64,000 nucleotides of DNA from an uncultured delta proteobacterium. GTDB lineage: Bacteria > Myxococcota_A > Polyangia > Fen-1088. A program made the translations under genes and the position numbers. Positions 10,988 through 46,942 of this stretch are shown here, piece after piece. The DNA lies in contig CAWCMR010000025.1 in NCBI GenBank assembly GCA_963796685.1, forward strand, positions 1,216,001 through 1,280,000, given 5' to 3'. Under the pieces are notes generated by a model. The model saw only the letters and a program-made list of their open reading frames with translations, did not search any database and was not told the DNA's origin. Position 1 is the first letter of the stretch. The number at the start of each line of letters is the position of its first letter.

Positions 10988-11024
10988 GCTGTCCACGGTG
11001 GCGAGCTTTGCTGGAAAGCACAAT

Positions 11025-19720: not shown

Positions 19721-19721
19721 G

Positions 19722-20107: not shown

Positions 20108-20110
20108 TTA

Positions 20111-21401: not shown

Positions 21402-21405
21402 TAAG

Positions 21406-26927: not shown

Positions 26928-29900
26928 TTGAGCCGACTATCCATACCTTCCCTTTTCGCTCGAGTTGCCAGCGACAATCCCGGTGCTACTGCCCAATGCA
27001 GCTACGCAGCTGACACCTGGCATCGGATTGACTACGCGACCCTTCTCCGGCAAGCCCGGCAGGTTTCTTCGGCGCTGAAGTCCGCTGGCCACAAGCCGGG
27101 AGATGCGGTGGTCCTCCCGTCGGTGCGCACGTCGCACCTTTGCGGACACCTGCTGGGCATTCTGTGGGCGGGCGGCCATTACGTGTTCATCGACCCTCGC
27201 TACCCACGCGAACATCAGGCATTCGTTGCACAAGAATGCGGATCACGGCTCGGACTGCTTGAGGAAGGCAGCCCTTCCCTGGATGTCGCGGTGCACTGGC
27301 TGGGCGTCGATTGGAATAGAGAGCCCCCGGATGATAGCGACCCCAGTCCCGATTCCGAACTACCCGCCTACGTCGTCTTCACGTCTGGCTCGACCGGAAA
27401 ACCCAAGGGGGTCGTGGTCCCGCATCGAGGCGTGGTTCGGTTGGTCCGGGACACCAGCTATATCGAATTTTCCCCCCGCCAGGTTTACCTCCAACTGTCC
27501 GCCTTGAGCTTTGATGCGTCAACGCTCGAGCTCTGGGGTCCGCTGCTCAACGGCGGCACGTGTGTCTTGCACCCAGACTCCGGGGCCACGACCGCTGCAT
27601 CCATCAAAGACAGTCTTGAGTCCCAGGGGGTCACCACGCTGTGGCTCACGTCGTCTCTCTACAACACCATCATCTCAGAGCATCCCGAGGCCATCCGGTC
27701 TGTGCGACAGTTGTTGGTAGGTGGGGAGGCGCTGTCGGTCACACACATTCGGCGTGGCCTGGAGTTGCTGCCCGAAACCCAGATGTTCAACGGGTATGGC
27801 CCGACTGAGAACACGACCTTCACAACAGTCTATCGAATTCCACGCACCCTGCCCGGTGACACCAAGCGTATTCCCATCGGTTTTCCGATCGATGGAACGC
27901 ACTGCGAGATCTTCAACGAGAAACTGGAACCCGAGCTCGACCAAGCCAAGCCCGGTGAGCTCATCGTCTTTGGTGATGGGCTGGCCTTGGGCTATCTGCA
28001 GCGCCCTGAGCTCACCTCCGAGAAATTCGTGGACGTCCACTGTGCCGACGGGCTGAAGCGTCGAGGGTACCGAACGGGCGATCTGGTTCTTCGCAATCCC
28101 GACGGAAGCTATGATTTCGTCGCCCGCAACGACAAGCAAGTCAAAATTGATGGCCATCGCATCGAGCCGGGAGAAATCGAACTGTATCTGAACCAACTGC
28201 CCGCCATTGCAGAAGCGAGGGTTATGCTGCGGGTGGGGCCCGAGGGACAGAAGCGGTTAGCCGCCTATTTCGTCACGAAAGCGCCACTGGATCGCTCAGT
28301 TCTGAGGCAGCAGTTGGAGCAACATTTCCCAGCGCACATGGTTCCTCACTTCTTGCTTCCCATGCAAGCATTGCCCAAGAATCAAAATGGCAAGCTGGAC
28401 GAATCGAAGCTACCAGACCCGTTCGCGGAGACCACGAAGCGACAACACGACCATGCCGCCGTTGCGCAGTGTTGGCGAGAGATTCTTGGGCGTTCAGTCG
28501 AGACCAGCGATAACTTCCTAGACGCGGGGGGAACCTCGCTCGAAGCCTTGCGGCTCGCGGAGAGGCTGGGAACCCGATTCGGCGTGGCACTTCCGGCGAC
28601 CTTCGTTTTCGAGTACCCGACCATCGACAGCCAGAACCGGTATTTTGCCCCGCAGGCGCCCAAAGATACTCTTGTGCATGCCGTCGGAGGATCCCGGATC
28701 CAGTTGGCGATCGTGGGTATGGCTGCACGCTTGCCAGGGGCTCGGGATGTCGAGGAGTACTGGCGCAATCTCCTGACCGGTCAAGAGAGCATCACGTTCT
28801 TCTCCGCCGACGAGTTGGATGCGGCCGTGGACGACCAGGAAAAGTCTCAGCCCACCTACGTCCGCGCCAAGGGGTTGGTCGCGGATTGCGACAAGTTCGA
28901 CGCGCCCTTCTTCGGCGTGTCTCCGATTGAAGCCGACCTGATGGATCCCCAGCATCGGATGCTGCTTGAGCTCGCCTGGCACGCATTGGAGGATGCGGGC
29001 ATTCTTCCCGGTGACGATGGTCGCCGCACGGGTGTATTCGTCGGGGCGAACTGGGCCCGGTACTACCAGCAGAACATCCTGCCCAACGCCGCCGTCATCA
29101 AGCGGGTCGGGGTCCTCGGCGCCGCCCTGGGGAATGAAACGGACTTTCTCTGCACGCGGGTCTCCTACAAGCTCAACCTGAAGGGACCCAGCGTCAACGT
29201 ATACACCGCTTGTTCCACCGGTCTGGTTGCCATAGCGCAGGCTTGCGCCGCGATCGAGCAGGGCCAGTGTGAACAAGCCATCGCTGGGGGAGTATCGCTG
29301 ATAACCCCCGTCAAAAGCGGCTATCTCTACCAGGAAGCGGGCATGCTTTCGAAGGACGGGCACTGCCGTCCATTTGACAAGGCCTCGAACGGCACCACCT
29401 TCAACGATGGTGCTGCGGTCGTGGTGATCAAACGCCTTGACCTCGCCGAGCGTGACCGAGACCGAATCTATGCGGTCATCAAGGGCTACGCCGTCAACAA
29501 CGATGGCGTCGAGAGGGCCAGCTTCACGGCACCAAGCGTGGCCGGACAAGTGGCGGTATACCGCCAGGCGCTTCGCAACGCCTCGGTACCCGCGAGTTCT
29601 ATCGGATTCGTCGAGACCCATGGAACCGCAACCCCGCTGGGAGATCCCATCGAAGTTGAATCGCTTCGACAAGCCTTCGATATGCAGGGTGTCCCAGAGA
29701 AGTCCTGTGCACTGGGCTCGGCAAAATCGAACATCGGGCATGTGATCCACGCCGCGGGTGCAGCGGGGTTCATCAAGGCTGTCCTCGCGGTGAAACACAA
29801 TCAGATTCCCGCCACCCTGTTCTTCACTGAGCCCAACCCCAAGCTGCAGCTCGACAAGACACCCTTCTTTGTCAACAACATGACCACCTCATGGGCCATC

Positions 29901-32900
29901 TCGGGCCCCCGCCGGGCGGCCGTGAACTCCCTGGGCGTCGGAGGAACCAACGCCCAGGTGATTGTCGAGGAGTATTCGGTCGAACCCGAGTGCCAGTCGG
30001 TGAGTGGGTCGCGTTCGTTTCCGCTGACACTCTCCGCAACGACCGCGGAAGCCCTCGAACGACAGGTAAATTCATATCGAGAATTTCTGGCGAAGGAAAA
30101 AGCAGTATCCTTGGTCAACGTGGCGTTCACCGCAGCCACTGCCCGCAAGGCCTTGCCATGGCGGCACTCGGTGTCCGGTTCCACCTCAGAAGGCTGGATC
30201 GAGGGTCTGCAGCAGTTCAAGCGCAGCCTCGGGATCAAAGCGCGGCCCATGGCAGATCCCAAGATTGGGTTTCTCTTTTCCGGGCAGGGATCCCAGCGCT
30301 TGGGGATGGGCCGTTGGCTGTATGACAACGAGCCATCCTACCGTCGCGTTATCGATCAAGGTGCGGAGCTCCTCCAGCGCTCGTCCGGAACCGATCTCAG
30401 AACGATCCTGTTTGCCCCGACATCCCAGGCCGCAGCGGACGTCGTACAACAAACGGCGGTGGCCCAACCTGCATTGTTTCTGATGGAGTATGGGCTTGCG
30501 CGGCTCTTCACCGAGCGTGGCATAAATCCTGACTTCCTGATTGGACACAGCATCGGCGAATTCGCGGCGGCGTGTTTGGCTGGCGTATTCAGCTTCGAGG
30601 ACGCGCTGGCCTTGGTCGGACGCCGCGGTGCCCTGATGCAATCGATGGCACCTGGAACCATGATGGTAGTGAAGGCCTCGCTCGATTCCGCGCGCCCCTT
30701 CATACAAGAGCCCATCTCACTGGCCGCTATCAATGGGCCCAAGCTCCTCGTGCTCTCTGGCCCCACCCAAGCGGTCGAAGAACTGCAGGATCGGCTGAAG
30801 TCGGAGAAGATAGGCTCCAGCATTTTGCGCACGAGCCACGCCTTTCATTCTTCGATGATGCAGGCAGCGGCGGACGCCTTCATGCAGGACATGGCCAACA
30901 GCCATCCCGGCCGGGCGCGAATCCCAATCATCTCCACCCATACCGGGCGACAACTGACGGACATCGAGCTCGCCTCGCCGGAGTACTGGGCATCCCAGCT
31001 CCGTCAGCCCGTGCTCTTCTCAGCGGCGGTGACGGCTGCCGCGGAAGGTTACGGCGACGCCAACCTGGCCCTGGTCGAGGTCGGTCCGGGAAACACGCTA
31101 TGCACCCTGGCAGCATCGCACGAAACCCTCGACAAGAGCCTCAAACTTGCCAGTCAACCCTCGTCAGGCATCACTGACAATGCCAGTCACGAACTGACAG
31201 ACTGTTTGGGAGCCCTGTGGTCTTCCGGTTTTCCAGTGAACTGGCAACAGCATTTCGCCGGAACGGGCGCTCGCAAGGTCCGGCTACCCGGGTATGCCTT
31301 CGCACGTGACCGCCATTGGCTCGATCTTCCCCGTCCGGAACCTTCACACCTTCCCCCAACCCCCCCCGTCCACGCGCTGGTGGAAACCATCCAGGAAATT
31401 CCCATGTCTCAATCAGAACATACGCAAAGCATACAACTCCAGCTCAAATCCATCCTCGAAGAGGTGAGCGGCTATGACCTGGCGGAGATGGACCCTACGG
31501 CACAGTTCAGCGAAGTGGGGTTGGATTCCTTGCTTCTCACCCAGGCCGCGACGGCCATCGAGCGGAAATACGCTGTCGGGCTGACCTTCCGTCATATGGT
31601 CGAGGAATACACGAGTCTGGGTGATCTGGCCGCGTTCGTGGCCACCAAGGTGCCTGTCGCCACCAAGACCGCGGCAGTTCCGCAGACAGCGGCCGTGCCC
31701 TCCGTCCCGGCTCAGCCCATTGCGGCCGCCACCTTGCCCGCCTTACCCGCCTTGCCCGCCTTGCCCGCCTACGCGGGGGTGCCGGTCGCGACAGGCAATC
31801 CGTTGCAAGATCTGATCAATACTCAGCTACAGGTCATGCTTCAGCTGGCGACGCTGTCGAGCGCCAACTTGCTTGCGTCCACGCTGAGGAGTTCCGGCGT
31901 CATGCCGGCTCAGACTGCCGCTCCCCAAGGTCCAGCGGCGGTGGCGACCACGCCTATGGCGACCACGTCGGTGGCAGCCGCCCCAATTGCTGCGTCCCCC
32001 ACCCAGGCCGAAGCCGAAGCGCCAGCCAAACCACGGCATACACCCGGCACACGCATCGCGCGCGAAGCGTCCGGTGTCCGGTTTACCTCTGCGCAGAAGC
32101 AATGGGTCGATGACTTCCTCAATAGATACCAGAAGCGATTCGCCCAGTCGAAGGTGATGACCCAACGCTACCGGAAGCGTCTTGCAGACCCTCGAACGGT
32201 GTCCGGTTTCAATCCGGAGTGGAAAGAGATCGTGTTTCCCATCGTGGTGAAGGGATCCAAGGGTTCGAAGCTGTGGGACATCGACGGCAACGAGCTGATT
32301 GACCTATCCAACGGTTTCGGACCGATATTCTTTGGTCACTCTCCAGAATTCGTCACGAAGGCAGTCAAGGAACAACTCGACATTGGGATCGAAACGGGCC
32401 CTCAGTCGCCCATGGCTGGCGAAGTCGCGGAGTTGTTCTGTGAGTTGACGGGCCACGACCGCTGCTGCTTCGCCAACACCGGTTCAGAAACGGTCATTGG
32501 GGCCGTTCGGCTGGCGCGCACGGTCACCGGCCGTCCCAAGGTGGTCATGTTCGAGGGAGACTACCACGGAATCTTCGATGAAGTCGTGGTTCGCCCAGGG
32601 CGGGACCAGCAGGCACTGCCAGCCGCGCCCGGCATCAACCGAGAGGCAACCGCCAACATGTTGATCCTGCCGTGGGGGGATCCCAAGAGCATCGACATGA
32701 TTCGGAAAATCGGCAAAGACCTGGCAGCGGTCTTGTGCGAGCCAGTGCAAAGTCGCAAGCCGGAGTTTCACAGCGCGGAGTACATCCAGCAACTCCGTCG
32801 GGTGACAGAAGAGATCGGCGCAGCGTTGATTCTCGATGAAGTCGTTACGGGCTTCCGGGTTCACGCCGGAGGCATCCGCAAACGGTTCGACATTGACGCC

Positions 32901-33572
32901 GACATGTGCTGCTACGGCAAGGTGGTCGGAGGCGGATACCCGATTGGCATCATTGGCGGCAAAGCCAAGTTCATGGACGCTCTGGACGGTGGACAGTGGC
33001 AATTCGGGGACACTTCGATTCCCGAGGTGGGGGTCACGTTCTTCGCTGGAACCTTCGTAAGACATCCTGCGGCCTTGGCCGCAGCCAGGGCGGTGCTGCT
33101 GAAGATCAAGGAGGGCGGAACGGGTCTCTACGACCAGATGGAGAAGAAGACCGCGGGCCTGGCTGCCGAGGCAAAGCGCTTCATCACCGAGATGAAGACC
33201 GAGGTGAAGCTGGAAGAGTTTTCATCGCTATTCTATCTCGCGGTACCTGCCAGCGCGCACTGGGGCCATCTGCTGTTTCTCATGATGACCTATGAGGGGA
33301 TTCACATTCAGCAGTACCGTCCAAGCTTCCTGACCACCGAACATGGTCCCGAGGATGTTCAGAAGATCCTCAAGGCGTTCAAGAATTCCTTGGCGCAGTT
33401 GATCCTTCAGGGGCTGATCGAAGGCGACGCAGCCGCCGCCAAAAAGTACCTCACCGGAAGCGGCGACATTCCCGCTGGCGCTCGACTGGGGAAGAACGCG
33501 CAGGGAGTGCCCGCGTACTTCATCGAAGACCCGAGCAACAAGGGGCAGTACATCGAGGTAGGCCGGCCATGA
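26928..33572 (+). CDS. Hybrid NRPS-PKS: A-PCP-KS-AT-ACP-class III aminotransferase
   Basis: A: FTSGSTGKPKG, YGPTE, YRTGD. PCP: GGTSL. KS: DPQHR, TACST, HGTAT, NIGH. AT: GQGSQ, GHSIG, HAFH. ACP: GLDSL. Aminotransferase: DEVVTGFR, YGKVVGGG. Confidence 0.95.
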   Translation: MSRLSIPSLFARVASDNPGATAQCSYAADTWHRIDYATLLRQARQVSSALKSAGHKPGDAVVLPSVRTSHLCGHLLGILWAGGHYVFIDPRYPREHQAFVAQECGSRLGLLEEGSPSLDVAVHWLGVDWNREPPDDSDPSPDSELPAYVVFTSGSTGKPKGVVVPHRGVVRLVRDTSYIEFSPRQVYLQLSALSFDASTLELWGPLLNGGTCVLHPDSGATTAASIKDSLESQGVTTLWLTSSLYNTIISEHPEAIRSVRQLLVGGEALSVTHIRRGLELLPETQMFNGYGPTENTTFTTVYRIPRTLPGDTKRIPIGFPIDGTHCEIFNEKLEPELDQAKPGELIVFGDGLALGYLQRPELTSEKFVDVHCADGLKRRGYRTGDLVLRNPDGSYDFVARNDKQVKIDGHRIEPGEIELYLNQLPAIAEARVMLRVGPEGQKRLAAYFVTKAPLDRSVLRQQLEQHFPAHMVPHFLLPMQALPKNQNGKLDESKLPDPFAETTKRQHDHAAVAQCWREILGRSVETSDNFLDAGGTSLEALRLAERLGTRFGVALPATFVFEYPTIDSQNRYFAPQAPKDTLVHAVGGSRIQLAIVGMAARLPGARDVEEYWRNLLTGQESITFFSADELDAAVDDQEKSQPTYVRAKGLVADCDKFDAPFFGVSPIEADLMDPQHRMLLELAWHALEDAGILPGDDGRRTGVFVGANWARYYQQNILPNAAVIKRVGVLGAALGNETDFLCTRVSYKLNLKGPSVNVYTACSTGLVAIAQACAAIEQGQCEQAIAGGVSLITPVKSGYLYQEAGMLSKDGHCRPFDKASNGTTFNDGAAVVVIKRLDLAERDRDRIYAVIKGYAVNNDGVERASFTAPSVAGQVAVYRQALRNASVPASSIGFVETHGTATPLGDPIEVESLRQAFDMQGVPEKSCALGSAKSNIGHVIHAAGAAGFIKAVLAVKHNQIPATLFFTEPNPKLQLDKTPFFVNNMTTSWAISGPRRAAVNSLGVGGTNAQVIVEEYSVEPECQSVSGSRSFPLTLSATTAEALERQVNSYREFLAKEKAVSLVNVAFTAATARKALPWRHSVSGSTSEGWIEGLQQFKRSLGIKARPMADPKIGFLFSGQGSQRLGMGRWLYDNEPSYRRVIDQGAELLQRSSGTDLRTILFAPTSQAAADVVQQTAVAQPALFLMEYGLARLFTERGINPDFLIGHSIGEFAAACLAGVFSFEDALALVGRRGALMQSMAPGTMMVVKASLDSARPFIQEPISLAAINGPKLLVLSGPTQAVEELQDRLKSEKIGSSILRTSHAFHSSMMQAAADAFMQDMANSHPGRARIPIISTHTGRQLTDIELASPEYWASQLRQPVLFSAAVTAAAEGYGDANLALVEVGPGNTLCTLAASHETLDKSLKLASQPSSGITDNASHELTDCLGALWSSGFPVNWQQHFAGTGARKVRLPGYAFARDRHWLDLPRPEPSHLPPTPPVHALVETIQEIPMSQSEHTQSIQLQLKSILEEVSGYDLAEMDPTAQFSEVGLDSLLLTQAATAIERKYAVGLTFRHMVEEYTSLGDLAAFVATKVPVATKTAAVPQTAAVPSVPAQPIAAATLPALPALPALPAYAGVPVATGNPLQDLINTQLQVMLQLATLSSANLLASTLRSSGVMPAQTAAPQGPAAVATTPMATTSVAAAPIAASPTQAEAEAPAKPRHTPGTRIAREASGVRFTSAQKQWVDDFLNRYQKRFAQSKVMTQRYRKRLADPRTVSGFNPEWKEIVFPIVVKGSKGSKLWDIDGNELIDLSNGFGPIFFGHSPEFVTKAVKEQLDIGIETGPQSPMAGEVAELFCELTGHDRCCFANTGSETVIGAVRLARTVTGRPKVVMFEGDYHGIFDEVVVRPGRDQQALPAAPGINREATANMLILPWGDPKSIDMIRKIGKDLAAVLCEPVQSRKPEFHSAEYIQQLRRVTEEIGAALILDEVVTGFRVHAGGIRKRFDIDADMCCYGKVVGGGYPIGIIGGKAKFMDALDGGQWQFGDTSIPEVGVTFFAGTFVRHPAALAAARAVLLKIKEGGTGLYDQMEKKTAGLAAEAKRFITEMKTEVKLEEFSSLFYLAVPASAHWGHLLFLMMTYEGIHIQQYRPSFLTTEHGPEDVQKILKAFKNSLAQLILQGLIEGDAAAAKKYLTGSGDIPAGARLGKNAQGVPAYFIEDPSNKGQYIEVGRP

Positions 33573-36500
33573 GTGGCGAATTCAACCCCTTTGCCGCAGG
33601 CGAGATTCTTCGCCTGTGTCCGACCACGGCCCCGCAGCAGGAGATCATTGCATCGGCGCAGTTCGGTGACGAAGCGAATACCGCCTTCAACGAAGCCGTG
33701 TCTATTCGCATTGATGGTCCGCTGGATGTGGAGCTCTTGGGCCGATGCCTGGACGTCTTGGTGGATCGTCACGAGATGCTTCGGGCGACGTTCTCGCGCA
33801 ACGGGCGAGAGATCTGTCTGCAGTCTCTCCTGCGTCCCAAGCTGCAGGTAGAGGACTGGCGCGATCGCTCGGCGGAGCAGAAGACACAGGCGCTGGACGA
33901 CTTGTGGCGCAACATCGCCGTTTCCCCGATGAACATCGAGGAAGGGCCGCTGCTGTTTGCCTGGCTGTTGCAAATGGAAGAGCAGCGCCATGAACTGGTC
34001 ATTGCCGGTCATCACTTGGTTTGCGACGGTTGGTCATTCGGACTGCTGCTGAACGAACTGGCCAAGCTCTACCAGACCCAGGCGGATCTTACGCGCCTGC
34101 CTCCAAGTCAGTCCTTCTTCGAGTTTGCCGAGCAGAATGACCTGCAGCAGGTTCGCAATGCCGACATCGACTTCTGGCGCGAGCAGTTCCGTCAGCAATC
34201 CCCCGCGCTGGACTTGCCTCTGGATTTTCCGCGCCCGAAACAGCGAACCTTCGCGGCCCGCCGCCACGACTTTCGGATGAACGTCGACCTGGTGGCGGCT
34301 CTGCCAAAGGCGGCGGCGAAACTTAAAGCCAGCCTGGTTCACACGGTGTTGGCAGGGTACTTCGTCCTGCTCTCGCGGCTCACGAGGGCGCAAGACCTGG
34401 TGGTGGGCCTGCCCGTCGCTGGTCAAGTGGCCATGAAGCGGCCCAATCAATTGGGTCACATGGTACAGTTGTTGCCCATCCGCGTGCAGTTGGATGAAGA
34501 CACGCCCTTCTCCGATGTCGTTGCGCAGGTGAAAAGCCAGGTCTTGACAGCCAGCGAGCATCCGAACTTCACCTTCGGGAAGCTTATCGAAGGAATGCGG
34601 TTGGACCGGTCACGGGTTCCGCTCATCGCGACCCTTTTCAACATCGATCAGCCGATGGGGCAGATGGACTTCGGCGCCTGCAAGGGTCATCTGCGCACCA
34701 TCCCGCGGGCGGCGGAGAACTTCGAGTTGTTCCTGAACATTCTTCAGGACTCCGGCCAATTGACTATCGAGGCCACCTACTCAACGGCGCTGTTTGCCGA
34801 GGAAAGCGTTGTCAGCTGGTTGCATAGCTTGGAGAGCATCCTCGCGTGCGCCATCAATGCACCGACGACGAAGGTGGGGGACTTTGCCCTCTGTCGTCAG
34901 CTGAATGCAATCCAGATCCAGACCAACGAGACAAGGGTCGCCACCACGCATCCCGACCTTGTGCGAGCCTTCGCCGCACAGGTGCACGCAACGCCCGACG
35001 CCATGGCAGTCTGCACGTCCGAGACGGAACTGACCTATCGCCAGCTCGACGAGAGAAGCAACGCTTTGGCTGCGGCGCTGGCCAAACGCAACATTGGCCA
35101 GGGCTCCATCGTTGGCGTTTGTTGCGAGCGCAGCGAGCGGATGCTGACGGCCGTCATCGCGGTGATGAAGTGTGGCGCGGCCTACTTGCCGCTGGACCCT
35201 GACTTCCCATCCGAGCGATTGGTTTACATGCTCCAAGATTCCGGAGCACAGGCCGTGCTTGAGGATGACGTGGTGCCCGCGGCGGTCCGCGAGGTTCCGG
35301 TGGAGCACTTGCATTTGAAAATGCTCGACGAGCTGGCCCCGCTGGCCGAACACTCGTTGCCCCCTGCTGACCCGGACCGGCTGGCGTACATCATCTACAC
35401 CTCCGGATCGACCGGCAAGCCGAAGGGGGTACGAATCCAGAATCGCGCCATGGCCAACTTCCTGGAAAGCATGGTCCGAGAACCCGGCCTCAAGCCAGAG
35501 GACTGCTTGCTAGCGGTCACGACGCTGTCCTTCGACATCTCCGTGCTCGAGCTGTTTGGCCCGCTCGTTTCAGGTGCACGGGTGCTGATTGCCACGCGAG
35601 CCCAAGCGAAGGATGGCGAGCAGCTGGCCACGTTGCTGAGCCGTCATCGTGTGAGCATCCTGCAGGCGACGCCCGCAACGTGGCGAGTTCTGTTGGCAAG
35701 CACCTGGGCCAGCACGGTCGCAACCAAGCCCCTGCTTGCGCTGTGCGGAGGGGAGCCCTTGCCTCCCGATTTGATCGTCGAGCTGCTGCCACGGGTCCGG
35801 GAACTGTGGAACATGTTCGGACCCACCGAGACGACCGTTTGGTCCACCTGCAAGCGCATCACAAGCGCGACGACCTTGGTGACGGTGGGGAAGCCCATTG
35901 CGAACACGCAAGTCTACGTGTTGGACCGCAACAACCAGCCACTGCCCGTCTCCGTGCCCGGTGAGTTGTGCATCGGTGGCGATGGCGTGACCCTCGGATA
36001 CCACAATCGTCCCGAGCTGACAGCGCTGCGCTTTGTCGAGCTGGCCGGGATGGGTCGAATCTACAAGACGGGAGACTGGGCAAAGCAGCTTCCCAACGGC
36101 GAGATTCAACATCTGGGACGCCTGGACGATCAGGTGAAGGTGCGCGGCTACCGCATCGAGCTGGGAGAAATCGAAGCAGCGCTTAAAGGATGCGCATCCG
36201 TGCTATCCGCAGCCGTTTACCTGTGGGAAGTAGGCGCCCAGGATGTGCGGCTGGTGGCCTGCTGCGTGCCCGCCGACAGCGAGCTGGACACCTCGACAAT
36301 CCGCAAGCAATTGCGGGCAGTTCTGCCCGCTTACATGGTGCCCCAGTACCTGTTGGCAGTTGGGACGATTCCCCTTACCCCCAACGGCAAGGTCGACCGA
36401 CGCGCCTTGCCCAGACCCGAACTAGCGGAATCCAAGATTCTGGGCCGGTCCGAGCTTCGGGGCCCTGCGGAATCCCTGATCGCCGAGGTTTGGACAGGCC

Positions 36501-38041
36501 TGCTTCGTCCCACGAACCCCATCGGCAGGGACGACAACTTCTTCGAGGTTGGCGGTCATTCGTTGCTGGCCCTGGAGGCCATTCGCCAGATCGAGAGCCA
36601 GAGCGGAACGCGGCTGACACCCGCCGAGATCGTTTCCGAGAGACTGAGCTCGCTCGCCGAGAAGCTGGATTCAAGCAAGCAACAGTTGGCGCAAGATGGC
36701 CCCGTGGCACTGTCTGGCGGCGAACAGCGTCAGCTGTCACCCGAGCAACTGCGCATCCTGAAACGCCAGCTGGATTACCCGCACGCCGTCTGCAACAACC
36801 TGCCCGCGGCGTGGTTCATTACCGGGGATCTGGACGTCAAGATGTTCAGTCGAAGCCTCCAGAAGGTGATGGAACGGCAAACGGCGTTGCGGACCATGTT
36901 TCAAGGAAGCGAGGGGGCCTACCGGCAGGTACTGGTTCATCACCAGGACCTGAACCTGCCTGACTATGTCGACTGCAGGAACGAGGCGGACCCTTCGGCG
37001 GCGGCCCAAGAGGATGCCCGAAAACTTGCCGCCCAGCCTTTCCACGTTCTCAATCAGATACTCTTCCGGGCTCGGCTCTATCATGTGACCGACAAGGAAT
37101 ACCTGTTCTTGGTCGTCCCCCACCAACTGGTCTTCGATGGGTGGTCGTTCGATTTGCTGCTCGGAGAACTGCGAGACACCTACACGGCGATGCGCCAGGG
37201 CAAGATGCCGACCCTGTCGGCTCTGCCTTTCGAGTACCGCGACTACGCCCACTGGCAGGCGAAACGAACACCCGAAGCCAAGAACCTGGCGTTTCACCGC
37301 CGGGCGCTGCCCCTGATGGTGGACACGCCGGTGGAACGTGGGAGCGCCGGGCGTAAGACATGGAAACTCGACCTGGACGCCTTGACACGGATCGAGCAGT
37401 TTTGCGAGCAGAACCGTTTGCGCCTGCACGAGTACTTCTTCTCCGCCGTCGTGGCGGTGTTTTCCAGCTGGCGTCGCCAGGGCAAGGTGAGTGTGGGGCT
37501 CCCGGTGACCGGGCGCTACAGCCCAGAAGTGATCGGTCAGATCGGATCTTTCGTATCGTTGTTGCCTTGCGAGCTCACGCCGGCTGGCGCGACCTTCGCA
37601 AACCAAGCCAGCCACCTGTCCGGCCAGATCAAGACTTTCCTCGAACACCAGGACCTGACCTTGGGTGACTTGCTCGCGGGCAATCCGCTGTCTCGCCATG
37701 CCTTCCTTGACTTCATGGAAGTCAGCCTAGGCTTCCAGGACATCCGCAATCGACCCACCCAACTCGCCGGGCTGGGACTTCGCCAGATCGATATGCCCCG
37801 CGAGCAAACCGAGCTGCCTTGCGAGTTTTGGGTCCGGGTTCAACCCGACGGATTTGTTGCTGTCATGGACTACGACAGTTCCCGCCATGATGAGGTGAGT
37901 TTGGGACAACTCGACAGCATCCTCGCGCCCTACCTGGCGGGACATCCCGAACAGGTGCCAATGCGTACGGAAACATCGACCGAGCGAACCAATTCGCCAG
38001 ACGATAGAAGGAAACCGCTGTGGCGTCGCTTGTTTAGCTAG
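33569..38041 (+). CDS. NRPS: C-A-PCP-C, no thioesterase
   Basis: C1: HHLVCDG. A: YTSGSTGKPKG, FGPTE, YKTGD. PCP: GGHSL. Terminal C: HQLVFDG. ATGA-coupled to the upstream gene. Confidence 0.95.
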   Translation: MSGEFNPFAAGEILRLCPTTAPQQEIIASAQFGDEANTAFNEAVSIRIDGPLDVELLGRCLDVLVDRHEMLRATFSRNGREICLQSLLRPKLQVEDWRDRSAEQKTQALDDLWRNIAVSPMNIEEGPLLFAWLLQMEEQRHELVIAGHHLVCDGWSFGLLLNELAKLYQTQADLTRLPPSQSFFEFAEQNDLQQVRNADIDFWREQFRQQSPALDLPLDFPRPKQRTFAARRHDFRMNVDLVAALPKAAAKLKASLVHTVLAGYFVLLSRLTRAQDLVVGLPVAGQVAMKRPNQLGHMVQLLPIRVQLDEDTPFSDVVAQVKSQVLTASEHPNFTFGKLIEGMRLDRSRVPLIATLFNIDQPMGQMDFGACKGHLRTIPRAAENFELFLNILQDSGQLTIEATYSTALFAEESVVSWLHSLESILACAINAPTTKVGDFALCRQLNAIQIQTNETRVATTHPDLVRAFAAQVHATPDAMAVCTSETELTYRQLDERSNALAAALAKRNIGQGSIVGVCCERSERMLTAVIAVMKCGAAYLPLDPDFPSERLVYMLQDSGAQAVLEDDVVPAAVREVPVEHLHLKMLDELAPLAEHSLPPADPDRLAYIIYTSGSTGKPKGVRIQNRAMANFLESMVREPGLKPEDCLLAVTTLSFDISVLELFGPLVSGARVLIATRAQAKDGEQLATLLSRHRVSILQATPATWRVLLASTWASTVATKPLLALCGGEPLPPDLIVELLPRVRELWNMFGPTETTVWSTCKRITSATTLVTVGKPIANTQVYVLDRNNQPLPVSVPGELCIGGDGVTLGYHNRPELTALRFVELAGMGRIYKTGDWAKQLPNGEIQHLGRLDDQVKVRGYRIELGEIEAALKGCASVLSAAVYLWEVGAQDVRLVACCVPADSELDTSTIRKQLRAVLPAYMVPQYLLAVGTIPLTPNGKVDRRALPRPELAESKILGRSELRGPAESLIAEVWTGLLRPTNPIGRDDNFFEVGGHSLLALEAIRQIESQSGTRLTPAEIVSERLSSLAEKLDSSKQQLAQDGPVALSGGEQRQLSPEQLRILKRQLDYPHAVCNNLPAAWFITGDLDVKMFSRSLQKVMERQTALRTMFQGSEGAYRQVLVHHQDLNLPDYVDCRNEADPSAAAQEDARKLAAQPFHVLNQILFRARLYHVTDKEYLFLVVPHQLVFDGWSFDLLLGELRDTYTAMRQGKMPTLSALPFEYRDYAHWQAKRTPEAKNLAFHRRALPLMVDTPVERGSAGRKTWKLDLDALTRIEQFCEQNRLRLHEYFFSAVVAVFSSWRRQGKVSVGLPVTGRYSPEVIGQIGSFVSLLPCELTPAGATFANQASHLSGQIKTFLEHQDLTLGDLLAGNPLSRHAFLDFMEVSLGFQDIRNRPTQLAGLGLRQIDMPREQTELPCEFWVRVQPDGFVAVMDYDSSRHDEVSLGQLDSILAPYLAGHPEQVPMRTETSTERTNSPDDRRKPLWRRLFS

Positions 38042-38053
38042 CTCTAGTGCAGC

Positions 38054-38206
38054 ATGTTTGAAGCCAACTTCTTCGACAACGGTCGACTGTTCGACATGTA
38101 CCATCCGGGCGGAAGACGCGGAAGTGATCGCTTGCTGAGGTTTGGGCAAGGGACCAGCTGTCGCAATCTAGTTCCGGCGGAAAGTCCGCCTGAAGCATCG
38201 CGATGA
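38054..38206 (+). pseudogene. N-terminal remnant of an alpha/beta-hydrolase (paralog of 46939..47667)
   Basis: MFEANFFDNGRLFDMYHPGGRRGSDRLL versus MLEAAFFSKGRLFGCYHPAHDIASDRLL. Stop overlaps the CocE ATG. Confidence 0.75.
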
Positions 38207-40047
38207 GACGGCGATTCTGGTACGTTCTGGCCAGCGGGGCGGTCGTGGTGGCGGCCGCCGTGTGCTCGAGAAGCTTGGTGCGGGCGGCGAAGGATCTGAC
38301 GCTGGGCTGGTGGACGGGGATTGGACGCAACTCGCGCATTAGAATCCAAATGCGCGACGGCGTACGCTTGGGCGCGACGTTGTACCTGCCCAAGTCCTTC
38401 GAAAAGCCCCTGCCCGCGATCTTGATCCGGACCACCTACGGCGACATGGACTTCGCAACTATCCAGTCCTTCGTTTCGCACGGCTATGCCGTTCTTCTGG
38501 AGGACGTTCGCGGGCGCTATCGTTCCGAGGGCGAGTACCGTTCGCCCTACCACCGAACCAAAGAGGACGGGTACGACACGATTGACTGGATTGTGCGCCA
38601 GCCCTGGTCCAACCAGCGGGTCGGGACGTTCGGTTGTTCCTATCTCGGCGAGAACCAGATCATGCTTGCCAGTGCCCGTCACCCAAATCATGTCGCCATG
38701 ATTGCCTCGGGTTCGGGCGGCGCGGCAGGCAAGGCGAGAAAGAGCTACGGGTATTTCGGGGTGTTCGAGAACGGGGTCCTGAATCAAGCCTCCGCGCTCG
38801 GTTGGTTCACAGCTCAGGGGCGACCTGATCAGCGAATTCCACGCCGCCCGGCAGACTACCCCGAGCGAACGCGACAAAGCATGAGCGCACTTCCCGTGAC
38901 CGACTTGGGTCGTCTTCTGGTGGGGGTCAAGACTGGCTTCGACGATTTCACGCGGCACCCACTGACCGATACCTGGTGGGACGAGCAGGGCTACATCGGG
39001 CCACAGGATCGATTTTCCGCTGCCACGCTCCATGTGAACAGTTGGTATGATCAGACGGTGCAGGGGACTTTCGACCTCGCGGATACCATGCGTGAGAATG
39101 CGGAAGGAACCGGCGCGCTATCGCAACACGTTCTGATCGACCCGGGACTACATTGCCGCATGGACGACAACCCCAGCGGGCGCCTGACAGTCGGGGAGAT
39201 GGCGTTTGATTATCAGACGCTGGACTTCCGGAAGATCTATCTCGATTGGTTCGACCACTGGCTAAAGCAAGAGGCCAAACCGCTGCCTCCGAACTACCAA
39301 TTCTTTCTCATCCATGGCAACCAGTGGCGCACCAGCGAAACCTGGCCCCCACCAGGAACCCAACGTCACGGTCTTTACTTCGGCCCCGGCACGCTGCAGG
39401 CTCGACCTGACCAGGCCTCTTCCACGCAAGAGTACGACTACGACCCGCGCAATCCGGTTCCCTCCATGGGTGGTGCGCTCTGCTGCACGTACACCGGAAA
39501 CGAGCTGGCGGGGGCCGTGGATCAGTCAGCTCTCGCCGGACGTCCCGACATCTTGACCTACGCAAGCGATCCGGTCGGGCGTGACCTCGACATCATCGGA
39601 AACCCATCCGTCGACCTGTATGTATCGACGGACGGTTCGGACACGGATTTTACCGTCAAGCTGCTGGACATCGACCCTGTCGGGAAGGCATTCAACATTC
39701 AAGACGGCGTAAGCCGCTTGCGCTATCGCAATGGTGTAGACCACCCTGAGCTTGCGCAGCCCGGTGAAATCTACAAGATCACAATCAATCTTCGGCCAGT
39801 AGCCTTTCGCGTGCAGCAGGGCCATCGGGTGGGCCTTCATGTTTCGAGCAGCAATTTTCCTCGCCTGGCAAGGAATCTGAACACCGGCGAAGACGAGTAT
39901 AGGGACGCCCGGATAAGGGTCGCTCACAATCGGGTCTTTGTAGGGCATGACCACCCCTCGGTGGTATGGATTCCCACCGCCTCGGCAGAGGCATTGGCTC
40001 CTCTTCACGATCCTCCTCGGCACGAGAGTACGTCAGGATCGCGGTAG
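38203..40047 (+). CDS. CocE/NonD-family (S15) hydrolase with N-terminal signal/anchor
   Basis: MRDGVRL, DVRGRYRSEG, GCSYLG, YDYDPRNPVP, SSSNFPR. Confidence 0.92.
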   Translation: MRRRFWYVLASGAVVVAAAVCSRSLVRAAKDLTLGWWTGIGRNSRIRIQMRDGVRLGATLYLPKSFEKPLPAILIRTTYGDMDFATIQSFVSHGYAVLLEDVRGRYRSEGEYRSPYHRTKEDGYDTIDWIVRQPWSNQRVGTFGCSYLGENQIMLASARHPNHVAMIASGSGGAAGKARKSYGYFGVFENGVLNQASALGWFTAQGRPDQRIPRRPADYPERTRQSMSALPVTDLGRLLVGVKTGFDDFTRHPLTDTWWDEQGYIGPQDRFSAATLHVNSWYDQTVQGTFDLADTMRENAEGTGALSQHVLIDPGLHCRMDDNPSGRLTVGEMAFDYQTLDFRKIYLDWFDHWLKQEAKPLPPNYQFFLIHGNQWRTSETWPPPGTQRHGLYFGPGTLQARPDQASSTQEYDYDPRNPVPSMGGALCCTYTGNELAGAVDQSALAGRPDILTYASDPVGRDLDIIGNPSVDLYVSTDGSDTDFTVKLLDIDPVGKAFNIQDGVSRLRYRNGVDHPELAQPGEIYKITINLRPVAFRVQQGHRVGLHVSSSNFPRLARNLNTGEDEYRDARIRVAHNRVFVGHDHPSVVWIPTASAEALAPLHDPPRHESTSGSR

Positions 40048-41696: not shown

Positions 41697-41767
41697 GTGG
41701 ATGCAGCGGCACAAAGTTACGCGCCCTTGCTTGTCGATGGTGTCGAATCGAGTGGCGCCAACCCTTA

Positions 41768-43058
41768 GGCCATGCACCAGAATTAACTCGTCAACTTCGC
41801 CAAAGTGTGACTATATTGCCGGGTGCTTCGCAACGAGGGACTGGAGGCCGCAGTCGTAAGCAAGTATTCGGCAATCGCGGCTGTGCTTGACGAGCGAGCG
41901 CGTCGGCTTTGGGCAGCCGCCGAGTCGCGTGCGATCGGATATGGTGGGGATGCACTTGTGTCCGCGGCGACTGGCCTGGCACGAGACACGGTTCGTCGCG
42001 GTCGATTGGAGATCGAGGAGGGAGTCTCCGCTACAGGCCGAGTTCGTCGCGTTGGAGCCGGGCGGCCAAGCTTCAAGAAGACGCAACAAGGTCTGGAAGT
42101 GGCGCTGGAGAGACTGGTGGACCCGCTCACACGCGGCGATCCCATGTCGCCACTGCGATGGACGTGCAAGAGCCGAGCGAAGCTGGCTGCGGCGCTCTCG
42201 GCGGATGGCTGGACGGTGAGTTCTACGACCGTGGGACGGCTTCTGCACGGCCTTGGCTATCGCCTGCAGGCCGTGCAGAAGAGCCGTGAAGGAACCTCGC
42301 ATCCGGACCGCAACGAGCAGTTTGAGTACATCAACGCGACCGCAGAGAGGTATCTGCGACGCAAACAGCCTGTCGTATCGGTCGACACCAAGAAGAAGGA
42401 ACTCGTCGGTGATTTCAAGAATGGCGGACGGGAATGGCAACCGAAGGGCACGCCGGACAAGGTGCTGGTACACGATTTCCCTGGCGACTCGGTGGGCAAG
42501 GCCATTCCGTATGGCGTCTACGACATGGCTCGCAACGAGGCGTGGGTCAGTGTCGGCCGAGATCACGACACACCCAAGTTCGCGGTCGCTTCGATTCGGC
42601 AGTGGTGGAAAACGATGGGTCAGCAGGCGTACCCCGAGGCCAAGAACCTGTTCATCACTGCCGACGCAGGAGGAAGCAACGGGTATCGGGCACGCGCCTG
42701 GAAGGTCGAATTGCAGAAGTTCGCAGACGACAGCGGATTGCGGATCCGAGTCAGCCACTTTCCCCCTGGTACGAGCAAGTGGAACAAGATCGAGCATCGG
42801 CTCTTCTGCCACATCACGCAGAACTGGCGTGGCAAGCCATTGCGCACCTTCGAAACGATCGTGGATTTGATCGGCAATACGCGAACGGAAGCAGGCTTGC
42901 GGGTCAAGGCCAAGCTCGACCTGCGCAAGTACAGTACTGGCGTGGAAGTTTCAGAGACTGAGATGCACAGGCTCTCATTGCGACCGCACACGTTCCATGG
43001 CGAGTGGAACTACGAGCTGCAACCCCGCGAGTTGACTAGGTAATTAGGATCAAAGGCC
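41768..43058 (+). mobile_element. ISAzo13-family insertion sequence, copy 2
   Basis: Same ends as copy 1; same orientation. Confidence 0.92.
41823..43043 (+). CDS. ISAzo13-family transposase
   Basis: Protein identical to 20166..21386. Confidence 0.95.
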   Translation: MLRNEGLEAAVVSKYSAIAAVLDERARRLWAAAESRAIGYGGDALVSAATGLARDTVRRGRLEIEEGVSATGRVRRVGAGRPSFKKTQQGLEVALERLVDPLTRGDPMSPLRWTCKSRAKLAAALSADGWTVSSTTVGRLLHGLGYRLQAVQKSREGTSHPDRNEQFEYINATAERYLRRKQPVVSVDTKKKELVGDFKNGGREWQPKGTPDKVLVHDFPGDSVGKAIPYGVYDMARNEAWVSVGRDHDTPKFAVASIRQWWKTMGQQAYPEAKNLFITADAGGSNGYRARAWKVELQKFADDSGLRIRVSHFPPGTSKWNKIEHRLFCHITQNWRGKPLRTFETIVDLIGNTRTEAGLRVKAKLDLRKYSTGVEVSETEMHRLSLRPHTFHGEWNYELQPRELTR

Positions 43059-43061
43059 TAA

Positions 43062-44378
43062 GGACCCGCTCAGGAACAACTTGATTAGGGCATGACGATT
43101 GGGGATCGACAGAAGGTCGAGAACGTGACTTATGGTGGGGATGGCAGACGAGGCAGAGATTCGGAGAAAGTACGAGGCGCTTGAGTGCGTAATGGACGAG
43201 CGCCTGCGCCGGTTGTGGGCAGGCGTGGAGGCCGAATGCAGCGCTGGGGGCATTGCCGCCGTGGAACGCGCGACTGGGCTGTCACGCACCACGATTCGGG
43301 TGGGACGAGATGAGCTGCGCAACGGCATCGAGCCTGCTGACGTGGTCAATGTGCGCCGCCCCGGTGGCGGGCGCATCTCGCTTGAGGAACAGCATCCGGA
43401 ATTGCTGACGACGCTGGAGAGTCTCGTGGATCCAGTCACGCGTGGCGACCCGGAGTCGCCCTTGCGCTGGACGTCGAAGAGCACACGCAAGCTGGCGGAA
43501 GAATTGGCGGCGCGGGGCTATCAACTCAGTCCGCAGAAGGTCGGGCAGTTGCTCAATGCCAGCGGCTACAGCCTGCAAGCGAACCACAAGACCACCGAAG
43601 GCTCCGCGCACGTCGATCGCGATGCACAGTTCGAGTTCATCAACGACCGCGTCGATGCGATGCAAGGACGTGGCGCACCGGTCATCTCGGTAGACACCAA
43701 GAAGAAGGAACTCGTGGGGGACTTCAAAAACGGAGGGCGCGAGTGACAACCGCAGGGCGCGCCAGTCCCCGTGCGCGTGCATGACTTCATCGACAAGGAC
43801 CTGGGCAAGGCGATTCCGTATGGCGTCTACGACATCGGCTTGAACACCGCCTGGGTCAGCGTAGGCGTAGACCACGACACCGCGGAGTTTGCAGTGGAAT
43901 CCATCGGCCAGTGGTGGCGCAACATGGGAAAGAAGGCCTATCCCGAAGCAACGGAGTTGCTTATCACCGCGGACGGTGGCGGGAGCAATGGCTACCGTTC
44001 GCGCCTATGGAAGCTCGAACTGCAGCGGCTCGCGGACCGAACCGGGCTCACCATCGGTGTCTCGCATTTTCCTCCAGGCACCTCGAAATGGAACAAGATC
44101 GAACACCGCCTGTTTTGCCACATCACGGAGAACTGGCGCGGACGCCCTCTCGTTGATCACGAGACCATCGTGCAACTCATTGGCAGCGTCCGCACATCGA
44201 CTGGACTCTCGGTCAAATCGAAGCTCGACGTCCGAACCTACCAAACCGGCATTACCGTTTCCGACGCACAGATGGACCAACTCAATATCGTCGCCGCCAC
44301 GTTTCACGGCGAGTGGAACTACACAATCAAGCCCACTCGCCCACAATGCCGGTGATCAAGTTGTTCCTGATCGAGTCC
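43062..44378 (+). mobile_element. Second, distinct ISAzo13-family element
   Basis: 24-bp IRs GGACCCGCTCAGGAACAACTTGAT / GGACTCGATCAGGAACAACTTGAT. TAA duplicated at 43059-61 and 44379-81. Confidence 0.92.
43132..44355 (+). pseudogene. ISAzo13-family transposase with in-frame TGA at 43744-43746
   Basis: GGRE*QPQG versus GGREWQPKG in the intact relatives. Both halves are in frame. Confidence 0.88.
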
Positions 44379-46096: not shown

Positions 46097-46942
46097 CTAC
46101 TTCAAGTCTCCACGAAAATGCGTGAGTTGCTCGGCTGCCCAGCTTTCAATCGCGTTGAGCAGGCGCTGGCGGTGAGACTCCACGGGATACAGGTGCTGAG
46201 CGTCGGGCCAGTAGTATTCCCGACAAATCTTTTCTAACCCGGGGATCCCCAAGGATTTTGCAAATTGGCCCTCAAGGTTGTAGCAGTCGTAAACATCGCC
46301 TGTGAAGACCATGAGGAGCCGACCATCGGTTTCGACAAGGCTCATGACGCATCGCTTTAGGTCATCAGGACGAGGAAGATCGCGCAAGCCAAGATCGGGG
46401 CTGGTTCCGGCCGGGGTTGCTGCGCCAAGGCCGAGGCGCCGAATCAACCTCCCGGCCACGCGGGCCCACCGGCGCCGGTCCCACACTCTCGACTTCAGGT
46501 AGCGGTATAGGAAGCCGCGGTCGCGCGGCGAGCGGACATCAAACAGCATCAGGCCACGAATACGCAAGTCAGACGCCGACAACTTGATGCCGTTGTCCGC
46601 ACCCGAACAAAGACCCATGATCACCAACGGCCGCGGACCAAACTGACGCTCCAGAGCTTCACAAAGGTATTTCCAGTCGAGCGCCACGGACTCGCGATTG
46701 CTCAGGCCCTCCCGCGGTGGTGTGTCGCCCTTGCCCGAGAGATCCATGCGAACGCACAGGTACCCTAATGCCGCCAATCTGCGCGCGGCTAGTACGTTGA
46801 GCCGGTAGGGCTCGGCTCGATGGAGCACGCCCGGATTCAGCATGACCACGATGGGGGCAGTCTCGGGCTTCTCGGGCAGGGTGACCATCGCAAATCCGCG
46901 GCCACCCTCTCCGTATCGGAGAGGCTTCTCTTGGATAGTCAT
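46097..46942 (-). CDS. Alpha/beta-hydrolase-fold protein (exosortase-associated hydrolase 1-like), Cys at the nucleophile elbow
   Basis: LNPGVLHR, RMDLSGKGDT, GLCSGAD, DAQHLY. Confidence 0.78.
   Translation of the reverse strand: MTIQEKPLRYGEGGRGFAMVTLPEKPETAPIVVMLNPGVLHRAEPYRLNVLAARRLAALGYLCVRMDLSGKGDTPPREGLSNRESVALDWKYLCEALERQFGPRPLVIMGLCSGADNGIKLSASDLRIRGLMLFDVRSPRDRGFLYRYLKSRVWDRRRWARVAGRLIRRLGLGAATPAGTSPDLGLRDLPRPDDLKRCVMSLVETDGRLLMVFTGDVYDCYNLEGQFAKSLGIPGLEKICREYYWPDAQHLYPVESHRQRLLNAIESWAAEQLTHFRGDLK

Follow-up and report, generated by a model that had tools for sequence, protein, structure and literature searches.

A hybrid synthetase predicted to build a valine-derived 3,4-diamino acyl-glycine intermediate in an uncultured delta proteobacterium

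A stretch of 64,000 nucleotides (referred to as the window) from an uncultured delta proteobacterium of the GTDB lineage Myxococcota_A; Polyangia; Fen-1088 (assembly GCA_963796685.1, contig CAWCMR010000025.1, positions 1,216,001 to 1,280,000 of the forward strand) carries two genes encoding a hybrid of nonribosomal peptide synthetase (NRPS) and polyketide synthase (PKS). The region from 26,928 to 38,041 corresponds exactly to two overlapping open reading frames (ORFs) on the plus strand, ORF1 (26928-33572, 2214 aa, TTG start) and ORF2 (33569-38041, 1490 aa, ATG start). The ATG of ORF2 overlaps the stop codon of ORF1 by 4 nt (ATGA), which suggests that translation of the two genes is coupled. 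Pfam searches yielded the order A-T-KS-AT-ACP-aminotransferase for ORF1 and C-A-T-C for ORF2, with A, T, KS, AT, ACP and C denoting adenylation, carrier, ketosynthase, acyltransferase, acyl carrier protein and condensation domains. The features are as follows; loci of relatives are given by L numbers.

26928..33572, plus strand: ORF1, A1-T1-KS-AT-ACP-aminotransferase (Pfam), 92.6% identical to ORF1 of L087.
26955..28394, plus strand: A1 adenylation domain (aa 10-489), code DALWLGGTFK, Val-like (Pfam, code reading).
28449..28637, plus strand: T1 carrier (about aa 508-570) with Ser537 in GGTSLEA (second PP-binding stretch; boundaries approximate).
28704..30164, plus strand: KS (aa 593-964) with C-terminal extension and KS-AT linker (to aa 1079); Cys762, His898 and His938 (Pfam).
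30270..31133, plus strand: AT (aa 1115-1402) with GHSIGE and HAFH, malonyl-type (Pfam, motifs).
31440..31640, plus strand: ACP (aa 1505-1571) with Ser1534 in GLDSLL (Pfam, alignment).
32235..33569, plus strand: class-III aminotransferase (aa 1770-2214) with the pyridoxal phosphate (PLP) lysine Lys1998 (YGKVVGGG) and D1970/E1971 (Pfam, alignment).
33569..38041, plus strand: ORF2, C1-A2-T2-C2 (Pfam), 95.2% identical to ORF2 of L087.
33626..34897, plus strand: C1 condensation domain (aa 20-443), canonical HHLVCDG (Pfam).
34970..36391, plus strand: A2 adenylation domain (aa 468-941), code DILQLGMVWK, Gly-like (Pfam, code reading).
36479..36658, plus strand: T2 carrier (aa 971-1030) with GGHSL, kept in 70/70 family members (Pfam, family alignment).
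36686..38038, plus strand: C2, terminal condensation-like domain (aa 1040-1490), HQLVFDG, with the tail W1485..L1488 F1489 (motifs, family alignment).

In the N-terminal part of ORF1, Pfam detected AMP-binding (10-357), AMP-binding_C (416-489), two PP-binding stretches and the KS (593-964), followed in the C-terminal part by Acyl_transf_1 (1115-1402), PP-binding (1505-1571) and Aminotran_3 (1770-2079). ORF2 was covered by Condensation (two stretches, the best at 20-443), AMP-binding (468-812), AMP-binding_C (867-941) and PP-binding (971-1030). Ketoreductase (KR), dehydratase (DH), enoyl reductase (ER) and methyltransferase (MT) families were not found in either protein by Pfam at E≤0.001, nor did Pfam reveal a starter C domain in the loading module or a thioesterase (TE) domain. 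The starter domain of ORF1 scores as an amino-acid adenylation domain (339 bits for TIGR01733, cut-off 317 bits), and the aminotransferase is glutamate-1-semialdehyde aminomutase-like in NCBIfam, with 245 bits under a cut-off of 398 bits.

Alignment of 19 sequences of the ORF1 family clearly demonstrated that the catalytic residues are invariant: Cys762, His898 and His938 of the KS, GHSIGE (G1206-E1211), R1233 and HAFH (H1304-H1307) of the AT, the carrier serines S537 and S1534, and K1998 (YGK) together with D1970/E1971 of the aminotransferase. The combination of GHSxG with HAFH, as opposed to YASH, marks a malonyl-specific AT, and the AT of ORF1 carries both motifs. ORF1 further has the outfit of a beta-aminating module, namely a KS with Cys-His-His, a carrier serine and a class-III aminotransferase with its PLP lysine directly after the ACP. 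Its starter is not of the MycA type, consisting of an amino-acid A domain rather than a fatty-acyl ligase or a polyketide starter. The GHS/HAFH signature, the absence of KR, DH and ER and the retained PLP lysine in YGKVVGGG, all claimed in the original prediction, were thus found again.

The specificity codes of both A domains were read with core motifs as anchors, namely FDxS, the residues flanking [YF]GPTE (one on its N-terminal side, two on its C-terminal side) and the lysine of NGK. These anchors presumably correspond to GrsA numbering, the positions being placed by them and not by direct alignment to GrsA. This reading returned the codes that had been assigned before, DALWLGGTFK for A1 and DILQLGMVWK for A2. 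The A1 code matches two published valine codes at nine of ten positions each: DALWIGGTFK, the commonest Val code (PMC12283262), and DAFWLGGTFK from the malacidin rows of a table (PMC9113097). PMC12283262 also gives DILQLGMIWK as a Gly code and states that its Gly codes are told apart by positions 299, 322 and 330; A2 agrees with it at 9/10 positions, the mismatch falling on one of these distinguishing positions, 330.

Both codes are strongly conserved. Among 121 ORF1-like proteins (the query and its best 120 matches, with identities down to 37%), 111 carry DA[L/F]WLGGTF, comprising DALWLGGTFK in 70, DAFWLGGTFK in 33 and DALWLGGTF- in 8, in which the Lys column was lost at the 620-aa cut. The other ten consist of six single variants, two Pro-like codes (DVQFIAH.VK) and two unaligned sequences. 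For A2, DILQLGMVWK was found in 58 and DILQLGMIWK in three of the 70 ORF2-family proteins. Judged by this conservation across about 100 homologues and the 9/10 agreement with published codes, the match is not a matter of chance. A PDB sequence search with A1-T1 gave linear gramicidin synthase subunit A as top match, with PA1221 lower and 1amu among the matches; such overall similarity does not decide the substrate.

The two condensation domains of ORF2 differ clearly. C1 keeps the canonical HHxxxDG in all 70 ORF2-family members, whereas C2 shows HQLVFDG in its place, and in PDB alignments its Gln stands opposite the second, catalytic His of the PvdL domains. Throughout the family the C2 motif begins with HQ (65 members), NQ (3), HA (1) or HL (1) and never with HH. 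The family itself is sharply bounded: ORF2-type proteins measure about 1,490-1,530 aa, and bit scores fall from 286 to 200 after the 69th match. Despite the missing histidine, C2 retains 48 positions conserved at ≥95% as well as the C-terminal tail residues W1485, L1488 and F1489. The absence of HH from all 70 members, together with this conservation, indicates that C2 is maintained, but not as an ordinary condensation catalyst.

Further candidates for the pathway emerged from the loci of close relatives. These were, by ORF2 identity, L087 (95%), L086 from the same genus (73%), L088, L089 and L092 (54-55%), L014 (49%) and L090 (47%); L013 ends inside ORF2 and was excluded from the downstream count. 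In all seven relatives with DNA past ORF2 (L014, L086-L090, L092), two genes, here called hydA and hydB, follow ORF2. The other partners are less constant in these seven relatives: a CocE/NonD hydrolase was found in five, a TIGR04325 methyltransferase in four, a JmjC/cupin-like protein in three and an Sfp-type phosphopantetheinyl transferase in one. Homologues of hydA/hydB, the JmjC-like gene and the methyltransferase gene were also found next to synthetases that carry an aminotransferase but are related much more remotely, among them Nostoc/Aulosira and acidobacterial records. In the window the corresponding genes are:

38203..40047, plus strand: CocE/NonD (S15) hydrolase, 614 aa, with a hydrophobic N-terminus and the serine motif GCSYLG; homologues adjoin the synthetase in L086, L087, L088, L089 and L092.
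46939..47667, minus strand: hydA, 242 aa, alpha/beta-fold, Arg at the nucleophile position (GVRFG) (relatives' loci, alignment).
46097..46942, minus strand: hydB, 281 aa, alpha/beta hydrolase with the Cys elbow GLCSGA and invariant Asp and His (relatives' loci, alignment, model).
12850..13785, minus strand: JmjC/cupin-like protein, 311 aa; homologues adjoin synthetase genes in relatives.
14084..14929, plus strand: TIGR04325-family methyltransferase, 281 aa; homologues adjoin synthetase genes in relatives.
10178..11047, minus strand: Sfp-type 4'-phosphopantetheinyl transferase, 289 aa; homologue in the L088 cluster.

The two Hyd proteins are distinct. HydA (about 245 aa) shows G-x-R-x-G in 13/13 sequences, thus carrying Arg instead of a Ser, Cys or Asp nucleophile, and no His is invariant in an alignment of 12 rows, which is not the residue set of a catalytic alpha/beta hydrolase. 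HydB (about 281 aa) contains G-x-C-S-[GA] in 23/23 sequences, and in an 18-row alignment the elbow G-x-C-S-G-A, C112, D135 and H249 are invariant. In the AlphaFold model of HydB (pLDDT 88.7) C112 is located between strand 106-111 and helix 113-124, as in a nucleophile elbow. Alignment and model together assign HydB the predicted residue set of a catalytic alpha/beta hydrolase, with Cys as nucleophile instead of Ser. A Foldseek search of the model against the PDB returned only generic alpha/beta hydrolases (TM about 0.5-0.6, ≤18% identity) and no informative relative. The best NCBIfam matches were exosortase A-associated hydrolase 1 (TIGR03100) for HydB and hydrolase 2 (TIGR03101) for HydA. Such pairs are not confined to the Val-Gly synthetase: in L090 a second hydA/hydB-like pair (6692-8323, minus strand) has as its neighbour another assembly line (8624-14907, plus strand), in which a formyltransferase is followed by an A domain harbouring an embedded luciferase-like monooxygenase, a carrier domain and finally a KS.

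Four further genes of the window were considered as cluster members. The FGE-sulfatase/PvdO-like gene divergent from ORF1 (25572-26642, minus strand), encoding a hydrophobic N-terminus, has no homologue in 85 loci and is probably outside the pathway. Three paralogues with a weak PHB-depolymerase/esterase match (15037-16545, plus; 23687-25060, minus; 40629-41696, plus) were rejected, as no homologue occurs in the relatives' loci. The first of them contains 99-bp (33-aa) Gly/Ser/Thr-rich tandem repeats, one copy of which is also present in the gene at 40629-41696.

From domain order, catalytic residues and codes we infer the following chemistry. A1 would activate L-valine, or a close branched-chain analogue, and load it onto T1. 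The KS would condense it with malonyl-ACP supplied by the cis AT, giving 4-amino-5-methyl-3-oxohexanoyl-S-ACP. Since no reductive domain is present, the 3-oxo group would be left for the in-line class-III aminotransferase, which is predicted to turn it into an amine; and since an amino-acid A domain feeds the KS, the new amine would come to lie beside an existing one, resulting in a vicinal 3,4-diamine and not in a beta-amino fatty acid. C1 would then join the diamino-acyl chain to Gly on T2, yielding 3,4-diamino-5-methylhexanoyl-Gly. With Gln in place of its catalytic His, C2 is not expected to release this chain by ordinary condensation catalysis and may rather act as a scaffold or non-canonical helper. 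HydB, through its Cys nucleophile, and HydA, as an Arg pseudo-hydrolase, would take the chain off T2, either by hydrolysis or by transfer to an acceptor, and the JmjC-like protein, the TIGR04325 methyltransferase and a membrane-anchored or exported CocE/NonD hydrolase could tailor or process it.

The sequence valine-malonate-amine-glycine is the best collinear prediction, and a well-founded one; its substrates and the transamination are read from codes and motifs, and nothing found contradicts it. We give a probability of roughly 55% to the whole reading, in which the two proteins of ORF1 and ORF2 work together as a hybrid NRPS-PKS line of this order whose chain is then taken over by trans partners. 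As tailoring and hydrolase partners are conserved, the diamino-acyl-glycine is probably a carrier-bound intermediate and not the final product. The valine-derived 3,4-diamino acyl-glycine originally proposed as the product consequently stands as the on-line intermediate, carried by the domains, their order and the conserved codes; as an end product it is incomplete in view of the His-less C2, the conserved trans partners and, in this genome, the deletion of the cis hydrolase pair.

Several points weigh against this reading. The codes match at nine and not at ten of ten positions, and Val and Ile codes are close. HydB scored 33.1 bits against the TIGR03100 cut-off of 168.45 and HydA 70.4 against 202.75 for TIGR03101, and homologues of the JmjC-like gene and of the methyltransferase gene accompany only three and four of the seven close relatives, respectively. 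On chemical grounds, a free gamma-amine beside a thioester could lactamise, and a linear diamine may not persist. The cis pair is deleted here and the surviving pair has diverged, leaving their cross-talk uncertain, and the line may be inactive. No biochemical data for any family member were found in the open literature.

The state of this copy was evaluated by comparison with the 93%-identical relative L087, which revealed that 1,433 bp present there are missing between ORF2 and the CocE/NonD gene. At the breakpoints, window positions 37900-38137 correspond to L087 11701-11938 and positions 38137-38400 to L087 13372-13632. The deletion removed hydA from codon 29 on and hydB up to 57 nt before its end. 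A diverged pair of hydA and hydB is intact about 8 kb away on the other strand, located after a stub of a second ORF2 in which an N-terminal piece of 116 aa, 73% identical to ORF2, is joined in frame with the final 42 aa. Upstream of this stub there is a UDP-glucose dehydrogenase gene, and a second ORF1 was not seen there. The surviving HydA and HydB are 58-62% identical to the L087 pair. The relevant features are:

38054..38137, plus strand: first 28 codons of the cis hydA, left before the deletion junction (38137/38138) (comparison with L087).
47678..48151, minus strand: second, diverged ORF2 stub, 157 aa (relatives' loci, comparison).
20108..21405, plus strand: ISAzo13-type insertion sequence (IS), copy 1, 1,298 bp (repeat comparison).
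41765..43062, plus strand: ISAzo13-type IS, copy 2, 99.1% identical, direct orientation (repeat comparison).

The two direct IS copies bracket a 21.7-kb segment containing the synthetase genes, in the manner of a composite transposon. A third ISAzo13-type copy (43132-44355), with 68% DNA identity, is broken into two ORFs. Transposase genes or fragments were also observed just upstream of the IS-bounded segment, namely ISL3 (17679-18941, minus), and DUF772/DDE_Tnp_1 (21518-22915, plus), as was a DDE_Tnp_1_4 fragment fused to a 23S-rRNA-IVP-like piece (19451-19954, minus). Inverted repeats, 19196-19373 and 20025-20081 versus 52742-52962, are 83-86% complementary, lie 33 kb apart and enclose the IS-rich region; they could be the trace of an old inversion by which the methyltransferase and JmjC genes came to lie apart from the hydrolase pair.

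An intact synthetase lacking the pair and an intact pair next to a gutted ORF2 amount to two complementary partial clusters in one genome. An active line would have to borrow the diverged hydA/hydB. The locus might instead be a decaying, non-producing relic, with the release enzymes gone from the IS-borne copy and the synthetase from the resident one. This is the alternative that survives best, although we still think it unlikely. It would account for the loss of most of hydA and hydB, for an ORF2 cut to 157 aa with no ORF1 before it, for at least six transposase genes or fragments within 27 kb and for the 12 kb of IS-rich DNA between the synthetase and the JmjC and methyltransferase genes. 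It sits less well with two long frames (2214 and 1490 codons) free of frameshifts and stops, and with dN/dS values (0.10-0.14) of 0.14 for ORF1 and 0.105 for ORF2 against L087, which average over the whole divergence, such that a recent loss of function would not show. Moreover, no family-invariant residue has been lost from the surviving HydA and HydB, and the two partial sets complement each other.

The surroundings open a further alternative. The window is a Wzx/Wzy-type polysaccharide locus comprising a tyrosine autokinase fragment, two deacetylases, three GT4 glycosyltransferases, a Wzy_C protein, a flippase, UDP-glucose dehydrogenase, an epimerase and an ATP-grasp/low-molecular-weight (LMW) phosphatase fusion. 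The best matches of several of these genes are PEP-CTERM/XrtA-associated models, all under cut-off. The fusion gene (44319-46061, minus), combining ATP-grasp with a low-molecular-weight phosphotyrosine phosphatase, lies right after hydB and has a 29%-identical homologue upstream of the L014 synthetase (6136-7827). Farther away, a SUEL-lectin-domain protein is encoded at 61373-63205 (minus) by a gene with 18-bp tandem repeats (62198-62457) and two 276-bp repeats (62429-62980).

In such a setting, the chain might be made as predicted but moved via the HydB Cys thioester, with HydA, onto a sugar or polysaccharide of the locus, resulting in aminoacyl decoration of a surface polymer. Besides the locus itself, this idea draws on the L014 cluster, which is situated amid PEP-CTERM/XrtA-style genes (DUF3473 deacetylase, an 880-aa TPR protein, sigma-54 regulator, histidine kinase, sulfotransferases, GT4), on GT4, ugd, epimerase or flippase homologues within 10 kb in distant relatives, e.g. 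L026, L049, L053, L063, L065, L078 and L098, on the resemblance of HydA to exosortase A-associated hydrolase 2 and of HydB to hydrolase 1, and on the general consideration that a Cys nucleophile suits acyl transfer. Nevertheless, L088, L089 and L092 have no polysaccharide genes within 10 kb, their neighbours being a molybdate ABC transporter, a molybdopterin oxidoreductase and GH2, and the sequenced side of G007, from the same genus, shows an rRNA-type methyltransferase and a TonB-type receptor rather than polysaccharide genes. A profile search of the genome of the window revealed neither TIGR03100 nor TIGR03101 above cut-off and no match to the exosortase family PF09721, an absence that is unproven at 88.6% completeness. 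Furthermore, as the synthetase genes lie between IS copies, they may have come to lie in the polysaccharide locus by accident. The connection with polysaccharide synthesis is suggestive at most, and decoration of a polymer appears distinctly improbable.

A bolder version would hold that the Val-derived vicinal-diamine dipeptide is never free, that HydB and HydA, docked on the His-less C2, carry it onto a surface polysaccharide or an envelope acceptor, and that exosortase-associated hydrolase 1/2 pairs do the same for simpler acyl chains. Co-folding of the C2 domain with HydA and HydB gave a score of 0.00, which counts neither for nor against docking. We regard this version as a long shot.

A cyclic product deserves similarly little credence. 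The valine amine or the new 3-amine could attack the thioester, with C2 or HydB guiding ring closure, giving 4-amino-5-isopropyl-pyrrolidin-2-one if the chain leaves the ACP or a diazepane-type dilactam with a seven- or eight-membered ring if it leaves T2. In other systems cyclising release has been linked to terminal C-like domains and to Cys thioesterases, and the present line ends in a C-like domain and has no TE; as a starter C domain is absent and no protecting group is evident, the amine would be free. Lactamisation on the ACP, however, would make a strictly conserved Gly module pointless (58/70 with identical code), and C2 does not possess the His used by cyclising C domains.

Least credible of all, given an A1 code nearly invariant over proteins only 37-60% identical, as for a fixed common substrate, an A2 free of an embedded monooxygenase and a JmjC-like gene missing from 4/7 close relatives, are other substrates of A1 or A2 (e.g. 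Ile, allo-Ile, 2-aminobutyrate or beta-hydroxyvaline) or a sacrificial Gly that is oxidatively cleaved to a primary amide, even though the codes match at 9/10, a JmjC-like oxygenase is associated with the family and, according to PMC12283262, Ile and Val codes overlap and Gly domains with an embedded monooxygenase share DILQLGMIWK.

The proposed two-protein line, from valine to carrier-bound diamino-acyl-glycine, is a trait of a widespread family. A search with ORF1 gave 7,234 of 8,000 scored candidates at E≤0.001, most of which share only generic NRPS or PKS domains; full-length matches of the same architecture include proteins of Marinobacter, Saccharospirillum, Desulforhopalus and Myxosarcina, and Nostoc and other cyanobacterial records were also matched. 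The closest named relatives of ORF1 come from metagenome-assembled genomes of Pseudomonadales (52-56% identity), which says little as the genes are flanked by IS elements. Among same-genus genomes an 88%-identical ORF1 orthologue was found only in G007, where the aminotransferase region is in two pieces in different frames. Other same-genus genomes (L006, L007, L009-L012) encode aminotransferase domains 46-50% identical to that of ORF1 with C-like sequence nearby, five of them in open frames of about 725-756 aa and the sixth in one of 2313 aa, and represent different assembly lines.

No description of this architecture or its product was found in the open literature, subscription journals being outside its coverage. 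Among the papers listed, judged by title and start of abstract, none was relevant to a vicinal diamine combined with an aminotransferase domain and a polyketide synthase, and none treated such a tie of exosortase or PEP-CTERM to NRPS/PKS. ORF1 and ORF2 belong, in short, to a widespread, uncharacterised family for which no described product was found. If the proposed chemistry is correct, members of this family build a 3,4-diamino acid by passing an amino acid directly to a KS-aminotransferase module, a pathway with no counterpart found in the open literature. The His-less C2 and the Cys/Arg hydrolase pair would point to an off-loading step unlike that of a TE or a normal terminal C domain, and might help in working out what the exosortase-associated hydrolase pairs do. 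The present copy, rearranged and devoid of cis hydrolases, is a poor starting point for experiments; as the family is large, crosses phyla and includes cultured members, one could look for the product in strains amenable to laboratory work, with cultured Marinobacter and cyanobacterial records among the matches.

Parts of the proposed pathway resemble several known systems. In biotin synthesis BioF condenses an amino acid to an alpha-amino ketone, which the class-III aminotransferase BioA converts towards a vicinal diamine. The chemical logic is the same as proposed here, but these enzymes are free-standing and act on free intermediates, with a PLP-dependent Claisen reaction in place of the KS and neither carrier protein nor peptide bond. 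The exosortase A-associated hydrolases 1 and 2 (TIGR03100, TIGR03101) are, like HydB and HydA, two unrelated alpha/beta-fold proteins always paired beside an adenylating enzyme and a carrier protein; the pair described here differs in scoring far under the cut-offs, in the lack of a detected exosortase in the genome and in following an NRPS-PKS. The X domain of glycopeptide synthetases is a degenerate C-like domain of a kind that could serve as docking platform for trans enzymes. C2 resembles it as a conserved condensation-fold end of the line devoid of the catalytic His of HHxxxDG and might have a similar docking role, but no P450 partner is present here.

Closer parallels exist among the beta-aminating lines. 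The flavipulchrin line of Pseudoalteromonas performs one malonyl extension, forms a C-3 amine by an aminotransferase domain and adds Gly as first NRPS residue (PMC12819058). This order of malonyl extension, C-3 amination and Gly is that predicted for ORF1 and ORF2; flavipulchrin, in contrast, is a lipopeptide whose line opens with a starter-C domain and a C9/C10 fatty acid and runs over seven residues. The McyE/NdaF module of microcystin and nodularin synthesis has the order KS-AT-ACP-AMT-C-A-T-C (AMT, aminotransferase), which equals ORF1 from the KS on plus ORF2. The string 'KS-AT-ACP-AMT-C' occurs in a microcystin paper (PMC9783101). McyE takes a long polyketide chain from PKS modules upstream of it and adds Glu, whereas here an amino acid would be the direct KS substrate and Gly would be added.

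The closest characterised logic is that of the MycA/ItuA beta-aminating module of the iturin family, in which the MycA aminotransferase aminates an ACP-bound beta-ketothioester with Gln as donor (PMC3870968). Shared features are the KS, the carrier and an in-line class-III glutamate-1-semialdehyde aminomutase-like aminotransferase followed by C-A-T. MycA, however, receives a fatty acid via an acyl ligase, whereas ORF1 begins with a true NRPS A domain, recognisable by Asp235, Lys517 and its Val-type code; the present line further has a cis AT, a single NRPS module and a His-less C-like end, compared with a long peptide line with TE. The contrast drawn in the original prediction between an amino-acid starter and the starters of MycA and McyE thus holds for the characterised systems found, yet it distinguishes a very large multi-phylum family and not this locus in particular.

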